Below are positions 6,549 through 9,746 of a DNA stretch of 64,000 bases, piece by piece. The number at the start of each line of letters is the position of its first letter. Within the stretch, counting starts at the first letter, position 1. Position numbers and translations under genes: made by a program. Below the pieces are notes generated by a model, which was not told where the DNA came from, made no database searches, and saw nothing but the letters and a program-made list of their open reading frames with translations. Where the stretch lies: positions 4,988-68,987 of the forward strand of contig JACREE010000014.1 of assembly GCA_016218405.1 (NCBI GenBank). The letters run 5' to 3'. Origin of the DNA: Gammaproteobacteria bacterium (lineage in GTDB: Bacteria; Pseudomonadota; Gammaproteobacteria; HIGHO2-12-38-15).

Positions 6549-9500
6549 ATGACCAAACCCATCGTCATTCAAGGCGTTTCAAAACAAAAAGCTCATTTTG
6601 TAGGCTGGGTCAGCAAAACGCATTTCCACATCTTGGACATCAGACAAAATCCCACCTTTGCTTGCGTCAAACAGCTGTTGCAACCAGAAACCCTCTCACA
6701 ATCTACACTCGCGGAGCGCAAAGCCGTATTTTCTATTCTCAAGGAAATAGATCATCTGGGCCTTACCTTTCTCCAATTCGCCATACTTGCTTTAGAGGAC
6801 GATGACAGTGTCAAAGAGGTTTTAACACGGCTCGTCGCTCATGAAAATGAGGATGTCAATGCGCTTTCAACACTCACTCACGACTCTGCTTTACACATCG
6901 CGACTCTCCTCAACTTCCCAAAAACAATGGACGCACTTTTAGAATTAGGCGCTGTACCCGACATTATTAATGACGCAGGTTATCCCCCTCTGGCCTTAGC
7001 AGTTTATCTCGACTTTAGTGGCCATCTTGCCCATCCTTTATTGACACATCACAATATTGATCCGCTCATTCCATTTAATGGTGCTGATCCTTTTAGAGAA
7101 ATCCTCACCCTATCCGACCCCGTCATTGTTTCGGCTTTTTTAAACCACCCTATCGTTGGAGAAGAATTAACTGATCTTGTCGATGAAGCAGGCGGCGCCA
7201 GCGTGGTGCTCGGACAACTCTTTGAGCTTTTCCTCCTCACAAAAACCCGAGGTGACTCAGTAAGAGCACAAAATTTTCTGTCTATCTTAACTTCTTTGGT
7301 AGAAAAAGGACTGGATCCCTATGAACAATCGAATGCTGATTCGCCCAGCTTAATCATGCTCTCGATTTTTCATAAAGAGCCGCGTGTGTTTGACGCCGTT
7401 TTTATCGCAGAACGAGATATTTCTGTCTCTCGCACAAACTATCACTGCGTGGATCTTGTTCTTCAATGCGCCGATTTACCCTTCTTTAAACATATCGCAC
7501 GTACCCAAAAACCCTATCTTAATTATCTCATGCAAACTGACCCGCATTTTGCGGTCAAAGTGGCTCATTCGATGCTTGTTTATAATCATTTTAAGGCTCT
7601 CGACTGGCTATTTTTAGATTATCCAAATTTGGCACACATCGATATCAGCCCTTTGTCAAACGGAGGCACGCTCCTATTCAGCGCCGTACTTCGAGGTTTA
7701 TCTCAAAGTGTCTTGGCCCTTTGTCAACGCGGCGCCAACCCTAATATCGCCCTCACAGGTGATTATTATGGACCCGGCTCCAACAAAGTGGCTCTACCTA
7801 ACAATTTTCCAGCTCTTGTGTTTTCACCCAGCATTTATTCAACTTTTCGCGTTAAAAAAGGGGCGACTCCTTTACGCATTGCACTTTTGAATCGTGACTG
7901 GGACAATGTATTTACCCTTTTATTTTACGGCGCTAAATTTTCGTTACATGACAAAGAAGCCCTTCACCCCGTACTACTTGCACTTAGATATAAAAAAATA
8001 GAGTTGATTCGCCTCATTTTAAAAAAAGCATCACCACAACAAGAACGAAAAATATTGCTTTACTTTATCGCTAATAAAATCGCAGCTTATCGATTGGACA
8101 CAAAATTCCTTGTGTTAGAGGCCCTCAAAGCCAACCTACCTTCTTTACTTAAAAAATTAATTTCAACTCACCAAACACATCTTTACCGCGCCACAAAACG
8201 AACCAGAACAATACACTATACCGTCTTACCTCAACGTACCCACCTTTGGATTGAAAATTCAAAAGGGCGAAGTCTATTACACATCGCGCTGTTACTCACT
8301 CCACCCAAAAAAGAAAAAGAAAAAACTGCTTTCCTTAAAAACCAACACAAATGCATACAACTTTTAATAAACGAAATGAAAAAAAGAAACAGCGCTCGTT
8401 ATCAAAAATCAGTGGAAAACATTTTATTTTCGATCCACATTCATCCTCAACATACCGCCCAAATTCTCGAACTTTTAGCCCCCAAAGACCCCCTCGTCAT
8501 TTTAGCCATCCTCGATAAATTCGCCAGCCCAGGAAACACCATTGAGCGCTATTCTGTGATCAGGGAAATCATGCATGTCATTGAGCCCAGTGCATTATTA
8601 CGCCTAGCCAAACAACACGAAAAAACAAATCTAGCACAGTTTGTCACTCAGGAAATGCGTAACTCTATGCCTGTTGCTGATACTTCACCCACCACCACCT
8701 CAACTTCACCTTTAACCATTTTATCTACACCTAAAGCACAACCCAAACCTAAGCAACCTGCATCCACCTCACCCAAACAGGCTGTCGATTCAGCACCCAA
8801 AGATACCCTGTCCCTCTTTATTCAACACACAGCTGATAAGTTACTCACCTTAGCCTTACCAGCTAAAAGACCTTTTTCTCCTTTAGACAGGGCCTATTTT
8901 AATTTTTACTTTTTAAGATTGCTGAAACTCATCAGATCAACCCTTTTAACAGATAAAGATATCGTCTTTAGTAAACAAGTACCCTCTCATTATGTGAGGC
9001 ACCAACAAAAAAGAACGCTGGAGCTGTGTATTGCAAGTTTCATGTCACCCCAAACAGTGATCACAGAGGAAGAACAATCAAATATCATGAGATTTGTTAA
9101 AGAAGATTTACCTAATTTCGAACTTTTTATCCTTCATCTTAAAGAATTAAACTTTGAGGATCGTTGCTCAGAAGAAACAAAAGCCATACAAATGGCAGTG
9201 AACTTATCTACCTGCAGCGATGCCATTCTCGCCCGAACCATACTGCCTTATTTAGACGCCCTCAAAGAGGCATTGGAGATCAAAAAACTTTCTCAAACAG
9301 AATTATCTGTTTTTTTGTGCAATTATTTTATCCAGCTTGCTCCTTATCTTTCTCAGCTCAATATCAGAAGCGTCAGTTTGAAAGACACACTTCAAGCTTG
9401 GATAACACATTGCACTGCCCTCAATGAATCCCGCGCTTTTATTTTTCTGCCCGAAGAAGCCGGCTTTTTCGCACAACACAATCAAAAACGCTTCAACGGC

Positions 9501-9746
9501 ATTAACACCACATCATCTAGTCACTCTTTTCCATCTAAAACATTGCTCCCTTTAATACAGGCACTTTCAAGTTATCTTGAAACTGAATTAAAAGAAGCCG
9601 AACAACCTCTCGATGAAAAAAACACAGCATCTTCGCCTCTTTCTCTTTTCTTCCGACCTTTGCCTTTTCCCATCAAACCACCTAAAACAGAGGCATCCAG
9701 CCCTGATGCAACTTCATCGCCATCCGCAGCATTAAGCAGACCTTAA
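6549..9746 (+). CDS. large ankyrin-repeat-containing protein (1065 aa) with Pro/Ser/Thr-rich C-terminal region; candidate secreted effector
   Basis: Several ankyrin-like repeats, e.g. SALHIATLLNFPKTMDALLELGAVPDIINDAGYPPLALAV, GATPLRIALLNRDWDNVFTLLFYGAKFSLHDKEALHPVLLAL and GRSLLHIALLL. ATG at 6549 with AAGAGG 9 nt upstream. Opposite strand to the flanking prmC/prfA. Confidence 0.65.
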   Translation: MTKPIVIQGVSKQKAHFVGWVSKTHFHILDIRQNPTFACVKQLLQPETLSQSTLAERKAVFSILKEIDHLGLTFLQFAILALEDDDSVKEVLTRLVAHENEDVNALSTLTHDSALHIATLLNFPKTMDALLELGAVPDIINDAGYPPLALAVYLDFSGHLAHPLLTHHNIDPLIPFNGADPFREILTLSDPVIVSAFLNHPIVGEELTDLVDEAGGASVVLGQLFELFLLTKTRGDSVRAQNFLSILTSLVEKGLDPYEQSNADSPSLIMLSIFHKEPRVFDAVFIAERDISVSRTNYHCVDLVLQCADLPFFKHIARTQKPYLNYLMQTDPHFAVKVAHSMLVYNHFKALDWLFLDYPNLAHIDISPLSNGGTLLFSAVLRGLSQSVLALCQRGANPNIALTGDYYGPGSNKVALPNNFPALVFSPSIYSTFRVKKGATPLRIALLNRDWDNVFTLLFYGAKFSLHDKEALHPVLLALRYKKIELIRLILKKASPQQERKILLYFIANKIAAYRLDTKFLVLEALKANLPSLLKKLISTHQTHLYRATKRTRTIHYTVLPQRTHLWIENSKGRSLLHIALLLTPPKKEKEKTAFLKNQHKCIQLLINEMKKRNSARYQKSVENILFSIHIHPQHTAQILELLAPKDPLVILAILDKFASPGNTIERYSVIREIMHVIEPSALLRLAKQHEKTNLAQFVTQEMRNSMPVADTSPTTTSTSPLTILSTPKAQPKPKQPASTSPKQAVDSAPKDTLSLFIQHTADKLLTLALPAKRPFSPLDRAYFNFYFLRLLKLIRSTLLTDKDIVFSKQVPSHYVRHQQKRTLELCIASFMSPQTVITEEEQSNIMRFVKEDLPNFELFILHLKELNFEDRCSEETKAIQMAVNLSTCSDAILARTILPYLDALKEALEIKKLSQTELSVFLCNYFIQLAPYLSQLNIRSVSLKDTLQAWITHCTALNESRAFIFLPEEAGFFAQHNQKRFNGINTTSSSHSFPSKTLLPLIQALSSYLETELKEAEQPLDEKNTASSPLSLFFRPLPFPIKPPKTEASSPDATSSPSAALSRP

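Follow-up and report, generated by a model that had tools for sequence, protein, structure and literature searches.

A 1065-residue ankyrin-repeat protein encoded on a lineage-specific insertion between prfA and prmC: a possible host-directed effector of an uncultured gammaproteobacterium

The locus analysed here raises the question of whether a large ankyrin-repeat protein of an uncultured, groundwater-type gammaproteobacterium acts inside a host cell or inside the bacterium that makes it. The gene lies in a 64-kb stretch of DNA, referred to here as the window, and a sequence-only reading had proposed its product as a candidate translocated effector. Among the Ank effectors of Legionella and Coxiella, a large size and a C-terminal region of unique sequence are typical, and free-living bacteria also have ankyrin proteins. 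The features of the gene, its product and its surroundings are collected in Table 1.

Table 1. Features of the ankyrin-repeat gene and of the block that carries it, in window coordinates.
Feature	Coordinates	Strand	Description or basis
Lineage-specific 5.2-kb block parting prmC from prfA	6461..11658		Comparison with related loci
AT-rich 88-bp spacer, divergent, prmC / ankyrin gene	6461..6548		Letters inspected directly
Ankyrin-repeat CDS, complete with stop codon	6549..9746	+	1065 aa, ATG start
N-terminal ~69 aa, without detectable relatives	6549..6755	+	Pfam, exhaustive search, hydropathy
Ankyrin block 1, ~4 repeats, aa ~70-207	6756..7169	+	Pfam and PDB alignments
Helical stretch, aa ~208-342	7170..7574	+	Low-confidence model helices, sequence inspection
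Ankyrin block 2, most canonical repeats, aa ~343-500	7575..8048	+	Pfam, PDB, phmmer
Final ankyrin-like repeat, aa ~570-615	8256..8393	+	Loose motif search
Pro/Ser/Thr/Lys-rich low-complexity linker, aa ~708-750	8670..8798	+	Composition; predicted coil
All-helical C-terminal domain, aa ~751-1020	8799..9608	+	Predicted; without detectable relatives
P/S/T-rich tail, aa ~1021-1065	9609..9743	+	Composition; probably disordered
YkuD L,D-transpeptidase, 252 aa	9835..10593	+	Pfam YkuD 51 bits
ParE-like toxin / ParD-like antitoxin pair	10626..11121	-	Pfam
153-aa ORF, unknown family; right edge of the block	11181..11642	-	Directly downstream of prfA

The ORF was confirmed as a real bacterial gene. A Shine-Dalgarno sequence, AAGAGG at 6534-6539, ends 9 nt before its ATG, and the longest ORF overlapping it in other frames does not exceed 99 aa; by our own rough estimate, the chance of a stop-free frame of 1065 codons at 42% GC is about e^-60. 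An identical protein is encoded on an independent Logan assembly contig from the same sample (run SRR12113407), which also bears the dksA-prmC-ANK-YkuD junctions, and the protein is recorded in the database as MBI5447419.1 ('MAG: hypothetical protein HY939_01655 [Gammaproteobacteria bacterium]'). Its GC content (0.418 against a window median of 0.424), GC3 (0.376 against 0.377) and codon-usage distance (0.103 against 0.106) are like those of the rest of the window, which argues for a gene established in this genome and against recent import or contamination. In the spacer upstream, which ends at the most likely prmC start (an ATG at 6460 on the minus strand), a consensus scan found no sigma-70-type promoter; a weak candidate, TTGTTC-N16-AATAAT, was spotted there by eye only.

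Comparison with related loci identifies the ankyrin gene as a lineage-specific accessory gene on a 5.2-kb strain-specific insertion. The gap between prfA and prmC is at most 203 bp in 55 of the 59 other loci that carry both genes. Two relatives have these genes contiguous, with a gap of 19 bp in L002 and about 28 bp in L071, and lack all genes of the block; the third relative examined has a different insert at the same junction. None of the three, whose PrfA proteins are 77-82% identical, carries the ankyrin gene.

Within the block, the YkuD gene lies on the same strand downstream of the ankyrin gene; its product has a hydrophobic stretch at the N-terminus as well as an acidic tract. No plus-strand terminator is predicted between the two genes, which may be co-transcribed. 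A YkuD homologue (42% identical) in a Legionella MAG adjoins uvrC and has no ankyrin gene beside it, so the pairing is not conserved. The toxin-antitoxin pair consists of a ParE-like toxin (10626-10913; Pfam ParE-like_toxin, 122 bits) and a ParD-like antitoxin (10894-11121; Pfam ParD_like, 65 bits). The 153-aa ORF has no match in Pfam, NCBIfam or PADLOC and was found in none of 150 related loci; read from a TTG at 11708, it would be 175 aa long.

Such content could suggest an anti-phage defence or addiction island in which the ankyrin protein serves as sensor or scaffold beside ParDE. The protein does match the candidate defence protein PDC-M72A in PADLOC (32.8 bits, E=1.1e-8), the same insertion contains the ParE/ParD pair at a distance of 0.9 kb, and the block varies between relatives. 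However, what is shared with PDC-M72A is an ankyrin-repeat segment only (protein aa 370-497, profile positions 228-355 of 392), no partner genes accompany it, and the neighbouring genes of the block match no PADLOC model. The ankyrin gene and ParDE are also on opposite strands, Pfam revealed no nuclease, NTPase or other effector domain in the protein, and tblastn against plasmid and phage collections gave zero matches. A defence role is considered very unlikely.

The identity of the repeats themselves is clear. Each of the four Pfam ankyrin models exceeds its curated cut-off: Ank_2 at 37.8 bits (cut-off 27.3), matching in four stretches, Ank_4 at 30.9 (22.7), Ank_3 at 29.5 (22.3) and Ank at 27.5 (21.1). 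This upholds the sequence-only assignment of the product as an ankyrin-repeat protein. In the PDB, Ankyrin-1/2, I-kappa-B-alpha and DARPins align to aa 71-197 of block 1 and to aa 366-497 of block 2. Block 1 is matched in Pfam by Ank_2 (aa 90-165) and by Ank and Ank_3 (aa 112-141). Block 2 contains GGTLLFSAV...GANPN and GATPLRIAL..., with an insert of ~30 aa at aa ~404-433; it is matched by Ank_4 at aa 343-383 and by a consensus-repeat phmmer search at aa 371-399, 438-469 and 474-494, and it takes the majority of the exhaustive-search matches among those listed.

The helical stretch between the two blocks, for which no Pfam stretch is reported, probably consists of degenerate ankyrin-like repeats, judging from the model helices and inspection of the sequence; among the matches listed, few cross it (for example aa 91-515 and 273-495). 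The final ankyrin-like repeat shows GRSLLHIALLL..., followed by a Lys/Glu-rich insert, and several of the listed exhaustive-search matches reach aa 578-581. There is no other ankyrin gene within the window. Expanded sets of eukaryote-like domains are typical of intracellular bacteria, and with a single ankyrin gene in the window such an expansion is not indicated.

An exhaustive HMMER (phmmer) search of 1.84 billion proteins gave 216 matches at E<=0.001; in the best 150 of these 216, which were examined for position, the best-scoring stretches all fall inside aa 58-581. Ankyrin proteins of insects, fungi and Moritella lead the list, which indicates generic repeat similarity and no orthologues. 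A word-indexed protein search returned the self-match only, a back-translated scan of GTDB genomes found no homologue, and NCBIfam models gave zero matches for the protein. Across NCBIfam, the protein databases and the exhaustive search, no similarity to characterised effectors was found beyond generic ankyrin repeats. The first ~60 aa and the last ~450-480 aa thus have no detectable relative in the searched libraries. At the N-terminus, Pfam has no match for aa 1-84, and no 19-aa stretch of the protein exceeds a Kyte-Doolittle value of 1.6, so that a hydrophobic signal-like or membrane-spanning segment is absent.

The repeats agree in sequence and spacing with those of generic bacterial ankyrin-repeat proteins (Pfam clan Ank; Moritella and others), the best bacterial match being a Moritella ankyrin repeat domain-containing protein (E=4.6e-16 over aa 71-152), whereas nothing among the matches listed, in Pfam or in the PDB corresponds to the 69-aa N-terminus or the ~450-aa C-terminal part. 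On present evidence, the 1065-aa protein is an ordinary bacterial ankyrin-repeat protein, one among very many uncharacterised ones.

The C-terminal part had been described as a long unique region with P/S/T-rich tracts, and the C-terminal third as rich in Pro, Ser and Thr. The region is indeed non-ankyrin, without relatives in the searched libraries, and ends in a probably disordered tail. The two tracts quoted for it do occur, TSPTTTSTSPLTILSTPKAQPKPKQPASTSPKQ at aa ~712-744 and ...EASSPDATSSPSAALSRP at the C-terminus. The compositional description holds for the linker (50% P/S/T over aa 701-750) and for the last ~45 aa, but not for the remainder: aa 751-1000 contain 16-26% P/S/T per 50 aa and are helical by prediction. 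Pfam gave sub-threshold noise only on aa 601-1065, and a PDB search with aa 600-1065 gave zero matches. A single-sequence AF2 model reached a pLDDT of 39 for the whole protein, and aa 745-1030 were modelled as helical with a pLDDT of 52. Foldseek with the latter model returned nothing from the PDB at E<0.5; matches to membrane receptors (E>0.5, TM ~0.25) were dismissed as meaningless. No fold could be assigned.

The tail is a putative export or translocation signal. Its last 30 residues are 53% P/S/T, the highest value among 53 ORFs of the window. The sequence-only reading had called this end small, polar or acidic, and only the small and polar part of that description is borne out: the last 30 residues contain one Glu and one Asp against four Lys/Arg, with a net charge of +2 and no Glu-rich block. 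The Dot/Icm signal class recognised by DotM is acidic, of the Glu-rich or E-block type (PMC5802825). With its net charge of +2 and single Glu, the tail falls outside the class bound by DotM. The E-block motif marks one class of effectors, and IcmSW-dependent effectors lack it, so the missing motif does not exclude membership of the Dot/Icm effector family. A PmrA-type site, suggested earlier as something to look for upstream, was not recovered: a scan for TTAATATT-N2-TTAATATT allowing up to three mismatches found four sites in the window against 2.5 expected, none of them within ~20 kb of the gene. The 64-kb window contains no type IV secretion genes, Dot/Icm or other, and no type I, III or VI apparatus genes.

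One alternative is a cytoplasmic bacterial adaptor or regulator, never exported, whose array would bind one of the cell's own proteins, the P/S/T tracts being ordinary linkers between domains and a disordered tail. A window without a secretion system, the absence of a recognised secretion signal (neither an E-block nor a Sec-like N-terminus), codon use equal to that of the rest of the window, and the related ankyrin-repeat proteins of the free-living Moritella are all in its favour. Housekeeping ankyrin proteins are typically small and conserved, however. For such a protein, more than 1000 aa of length together with unique domains and a strain-specific occurrence would be unusual, and no orthologue exists even in the relatives with the 77-82% identical PrfA. 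This explanation is possible but somewhat unlikely.

Export by another route was also considered, in which the protein would be a substrate of type VI, type I or other export, or be released by lysis, and act on neighbouring cells or protists without a type IVB system. A gene at 26-865 encodes a PAAR domain with a C-terminal extension, a TolC-like/HlyD/ABC export set occupies 33.8-38.3 kb of the window, and the C-terminus is unlike the acidic Dot/Icm class. The PAAR gene is 5.7 kb from the ankyrin gene, however, across ftsEX, dksA and prmC, and is preceded by an aminotransferase gene, not by vgrG or hcp. A type VI link through PAAR was rejected, with no vgrG adjacent to PAAR and no T6SS adaptor gene adjacent to the ankyrin gene, and the ankyrin protein matched no RTX or other type I repeat family in Pfam. 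Non-IVB export is judged unlikely.

Elsewhere, the gene order prfA-prmC-dksA was confined to loci labelled Legionella, Tatlockia, Legionellaceae or Legionellales, which hints at Legionellales for the source MAG. Dot/Icm was reportedly acquired in the last common ancestor of the Legionellales (PMC8896642). Relatives in a MutS search are 72-79% identical, and the best named matches, from Coxiella, Hahella and Spartinivicinus, all have 58-59% identity. A neighbour-joining tree of HemA, PrfA and PrmC pairs the window with L002 and does not resolve deeper placement; it was rejected as taxonomic evidence, the labels of L024 (Legionellales) and L020 (Legionellaceae) being scattered in it. An 800-aa protein of unknown family was of no help in placing the organism, its homology search giving only four metagenome relatives. 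The CAVA end of this protein was discarded as a CaaX motif and attributed to chance, with Cys at position -4 in none of the five homologues checked.

Among the closest known parallels are the Ank/LegA families of Dot/Icm effectors of L. pneumophila and C. burnetii (for example AnkX, AnkB, AnkH/LegA3 and AnkG). In these, ankyrin repeats likewise occupy the N-terminal and central part, a unique region comes next and the C-terminus is unstructured, as it probably is here; they lack a Sec signal and show a patchy, strain-specific distribution. They too come from gammaproteobacteria, and the prfA-prmC-dksA order at the present locus is as in Legionellaceae-labelled loci. In contrast to these effectors, the sequence similarity of the protein studied here is confined to generic repeats, its gene has neither a Glu-rich or E-block tail nor a PmrA site, and Pfam found no F-box, FIC, SET or other accessory domain in it.

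Of the readings considered, an effector-like protein delivered into a host cell is plausible and the likeliest, and we hold it tentatively. In its favour are the repeats, the confinement of the listed matches to them, the lack of signal-like and membrane-spanning segments, the P/S/T-rich tail, the accessory block, codon use like that of the window and the Legionellales-like gene order. Against it are a window without secretion-apparatus genes, the weak case for placing the lineage in Legionellales, the basic tail, the missing PmrA-like site, the lack of similarity to characterised effectors, the single ankyrin gene and the ankyrin proteins of free-living bacteria. The product would be a soluble, modular protein-binding protein in which ~11-13 ankyrin repeats (aa ~70-615) form a binding scaffold, joined by a flexible P/S/T linker to a helical domain unique to the lineage (aa ~751-1020), with a disordered P/S/T-rich tail at the end. 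It would leave the bacterium without a Sec signal and enter a eukaryotic, probably protist, host cell. The disordered C-terminus would be the likeliest site of the export signal, possibly of the Dot/Icm-type IVB kind. Inside the host, a host protein may be the ligand of the ankyrin array, while activity or localisation could come from the C-terminal domain.

A bolder version of the effector reading would make the protein a translocated effector of a deep-branching, hitherto unstudied, Legionellales-like groundwater lineage, with the ~270-residue helical domain as a new host-targeting or catalytic fold, a non-acidic P/S/T-rich C-terminal signal, and the prfA-prmC junction as a landing site at which the clade acquires and loses such accessory genes. 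We regard this version as speculative and unlikely.

The most useful results of the analysis are the two ends of the protein without detectable relatives in 1.84 billion proteins, the 5.2-kb insertion that breaks prfA from prmC, and a tail outside the acidic Dot/Icm class. If the effector reading is true, the known set of ankyrin effectors would gain a new host-interaction domain and a tail signal of non-canonical type, and the protein would point to host association in the life of this uncultured lineage of groundwater gammaproteobacteria.

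The ankyrin gene is an ATG-started open reading frame (6549..9746, plus strand) encoding 1065 aa. An AAGAGG sequence is located 9 nt 5' of the start codon. No ORF overlapping the gene in another frame exceeds 99 aa, and by our own estimate chance falls far short of explaining so long an open frame in DNA of 42% GC. A 72,140-nt contig carries the same protein (100% identity) under the accession MBI5447419.1 ([quoted passage not shown]). A separately assembled 6.4-kb Logan contig from run SRR12113407 encodes the identical protein with the same dksA-prmC-ANK-YkuD junctions, which rules out a chimeric assembly.

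The ankyrin repeats proposed by the sequence-only reading were confirmed by family and structure matches. Four Pfam models exceed their curated cut-offs (Ank_2, 37.8 bits against 27.3; Ank_4, 30.9 against 22.7; Ank_3, 29.5 against 22.3; Ank, 27.5 against 21.1), and solved ankyrins, I-kappa-B-alpha and DARPins align with aa 71-197 and 366-497, which by sequence identifies the protein as a member of the ankyrin-repeat superfamily. Sequence reading, HMM and PDB matches together suggest roughly 11-13 ankyrin or ankyrin-like repeats from aa ~70 to ~615. The blocks at aa 70-207 and aa 343-500 are well supported; the intervening region (aa 208-342) resembles repeats that have degenerated, and a final ankyrin-like repeat may occupy aa ~570-615. 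Prediction and composition place after the repeats a helical stretch (aa ~615-705), a P/S/T/K linker, a helical domain (aa ~751-1020) and a Pro/Ser/Thr (P/S/T) tail. Both peptide tracts quoted in the earlier reading are present. Its "P/S/T-rich C-terminal third" describes the linker (aa ~708-750, 50% P/S/T) and the last ~45 residues but not the remainder, where aa 751-1000 are predicted to be helical with 16-26% P/S/T per 50-aa window. No membrane span was found, no 19-residue window being hydrophobic enough, and the N-terminus showed no signal-like hydrophobic core.

A word-indexed search of 5.8 billion clusters returned the ankyrin protein itself as the sole match, and a scan of 185,579 species genomes found no relative. 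When 1.84 billion representatives were searched exhaustively with HMMER, 216 matched at E<=0.001; among the best 150 of these, the best-scoring stretch fell within aa 58-581 in every case. The ten best named matches come from insects, a fungus and Moritella, indicating generic repeat similarity. No NCBIfam model matches the protein, Pfam returned zero matches on the first 84 aa and sub-threshold noise only on the C-terminal 465 aa, and there was no match to the C-terminal 466 aa in the PDB or to the protein in plasmid and phage collections. Confidence was low for the single-sequence AF2 models (pLDDT 39 and 52), and a fold search from the AF2 model gave no meaningful match. Because sequence, family and structure searches were null outside the repeats, both ends of the protein are without detectable relatives.

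Features of the block between prmC and prfA and of the surrounding window
Feature	Position	Strand	Size or spacing	Remarks
PAAR gene	26-865	+		5.7 kb from ankyrin gene, across housekeeping genes
PAAR gene with overlapping ORF	26-1446	+	ORF 194 aa	ORF of unknown family
dksA	4663-5565	-	300 aa	
Inserted block	6461-11658		5.2 kb	Separates prfA from prmC; holds ankyrin gene, YkuD gene, ParE-like/ParD-like pair and ORF of unknown family
YkuD L,D-transpeptidase	9835-10593	+	89 bp downstream of ankyrin gene	Same strand as ankyrin gene; acidic D/E-rich tract
ParE-like toxin and ParD-like antitoxin	10626-11121	-	20-bp overlap	Both intact
ORF of unknown family	within block			
800-aa protein	20430-22832	-	800 aa	
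YkuD_2 L,D-transpeptidase	28167-28895	-		Second of the window, different type
Low-GC stretch	56295-61429			GC 36-39%

The window is ordinary gammaproteobacterial chromosomal DNA, with ftsEX, dksA, prmC, prfA, hemA, prs, rplY, pth, ychF, clpB, hemH, mutS, nadE, gmk, spoT, mutY and trpS among its genes. GC, GC3 and codon use of the ankyrin gene lie at the window medians, marking it as an established resident and not a fresh import. No terminator is predicted between it and the YkuD gene, for which a Legionella MAG carries a homologue at 42% identity (L031, 2246-3013). The ParE-like gene is low in GC (0.326), and no ParE-like/ParD-like homologues were found among 150 related loci. A role of the ankyrin protein in defence or addiction is very improbable; a defence-island role is unlikely, since its PADLOC match (PDC-M72A) covers the repeats only and the neighbouring genes have no defence matches. 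Elsewhere, the low-GC stretch, probably a defence or mobile island, encodes two AAA_14/DUF4143 ATPases matching PADLOC candidate PDC-S01 (369 and 262 bits), a Schlafen AlbA_2/HATPase_c_4 protein and a GNAT acetyltransferase.

Among other genomes carrying both genes, prfA and prmC are at most 203 bp apart in 55 of 59 loci. L002, from a Rifle aquifer MAG with 77% PrfA identity, shows collinearity over ftsX to pth, with a 19-bp prfA-prmC gap and zero genes of the ankyrin block. In L071 (PrfA 82% identical) the two genes are contiguous and the additional gene is another one, a methyltransferase-like ORF of 354 aa between prmC and dksA (12025-13089). L151, at 78% PrfA identity, shares the gene order of the window from hemH to prfA and then carries an unrelated 394-aa ORF (22040 onward). 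As neither the window nor any two of these relatives agree there, the prfA-prmC junction is a variable spot in the clade; as they lack the ankyrin gene, the gene is specific to the lineage of this MAG. The prfA-prmC-dksA junction thus looks like a clade-specific hotspot of gene gain and loss, with different cargo in three genomes and nothing in L002. Judging from this arrangement, prmC-dksA in the window is detached from the hemA-prfA operon, and its transcription must start at a putative promoter in the 88-bp divergent region.

Two further proteins were noted in the window and its relatives. The window DksA carries a ~150-residue Lys/Ala/Pro/Val-rich, histone H1-like N-terminal extension, its canonical part beginning around aa 158 (PRK10778 of NCBIfam covers aa 158-298). 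Translation of L071 dksA (13386-14285) shows the extension, and the L002 protein (10654-11454) is long too (266 aa); dksA matches in Legionella loci span ~130-165 residues only. The 800-aa protein, which belongs to no Pfam, NCBIfam or PADLOC family, combines a Lys/Glu-rich N-terminal part, a central block of multiple membrane spans and a disordered P/S/G/N-rich tail with a small hydrophobic end. It is kept at the same position in L071 (16670-18958) and L151 (10001-12511) and has only four homologues in 5.8 billion clusters; its CaaX-like CAVA end, shared by none of five homologues checked, is probably due to chance.

For MutS, identity to named matches, Coxiella burnetii, Hahella and Spartinivicinus among them, does not exceed 58-59%. 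PrfA is similarly close to Legionella and to Pseudomonadales (62-66%), and a neighbour-joining tree of HemA, PrfA and PrmC pairs the window with L002 and gives no deeper placement. The prfA-prmC-dksA order occurs in every sufficiently long Legionella- or Tatlockia-labelled locus, in those labelled Legionellaceae bacterium (L020) and Legionellales bacterium (L024), and in none labelled Halioglobus, Pseudomonadales, Aestuariirhabdus, Motiliproteus or Chromatiales. This is a hint of Legionellales affinity, although gene order by itself is not enough to place the lineage. It matters because the last common ancestor of Legionellales reportedly acquired Dot/Icm (PMC8896642).

Within the 64-kb window there are no type IV secretion genes. 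Of the small, polar or acidic composition for which the earlier reading likened the extreme C-terminus to type IV translocation signals, the last 30 residues, RPLPFPIKPPKTEASSPDATSSPSAALSRP, are small and polar but not acidic: a single Glu and a single Asp face four Lys/Arg. A DotM-binding acidic Glu-rich/E-block C-terminus characterises one class of Dot/Icm substrates, and IcmSW-dependent substrates lack it (PMC5802825). With a net charge of +2 and a single Glu, the tail falls outside the acidic class, which does not exclude it from the Dot/Icm effectors since the E-block defines that one class only. No PmrA-type tandem site lies near the ankyrin gene, and such sites are not enriched in the window. 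The P/S/T richness of the C-terminus is the highest among the 53 ORFs of the window and fits an unstructured signal and an ordinary disordered tail equally well.

Size and architecture, two ends without relatives, accessory status, the missing Sec signal and the Legionellales-like gene order lead us to favour, tentatively, a modular binder that would leave the bacterium without a Sec signal and act in a eukaryotic host cell; secretion, route, host and target are all presumptive. The ankyrin array would hold a host protein, the unique C-terminal domain would provide activity or localisation, and the disordered tail would be the most probable export signal. The main rival, a purely intracellular bacterial adaptor, is somewhat less likely. 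Other export routes are improbable; a type VI link is unlikely given the distance to the PAAR gene, upstream of which the Logan contig carries a class III aminotransferase, not vgrG. The PAAR-domain protein itself (PF05488, 70.6 bits) is extended at its C-terminus by ~200 aa that belong to no known family, and together with the overlapping ORF it could form a toxin/immunity pair.

The ankyrin protein resembles the Ank/LegA effectors of Legionella and Coxiella in appearance and, presumably, in mode of action, but it has neither homology to a known effector nor an E-block signal, and for these reasons, among others, membership in that functional class cannot be claimed. Overall, it is a new ankyrin protein of bacteria, so far uncharacterised, and a candidate effector. 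MAGs commonly encode hypothetical proteins of this kind. Specialists would find nothing surprising in this one; what is useful are the negative results and the genomic context.
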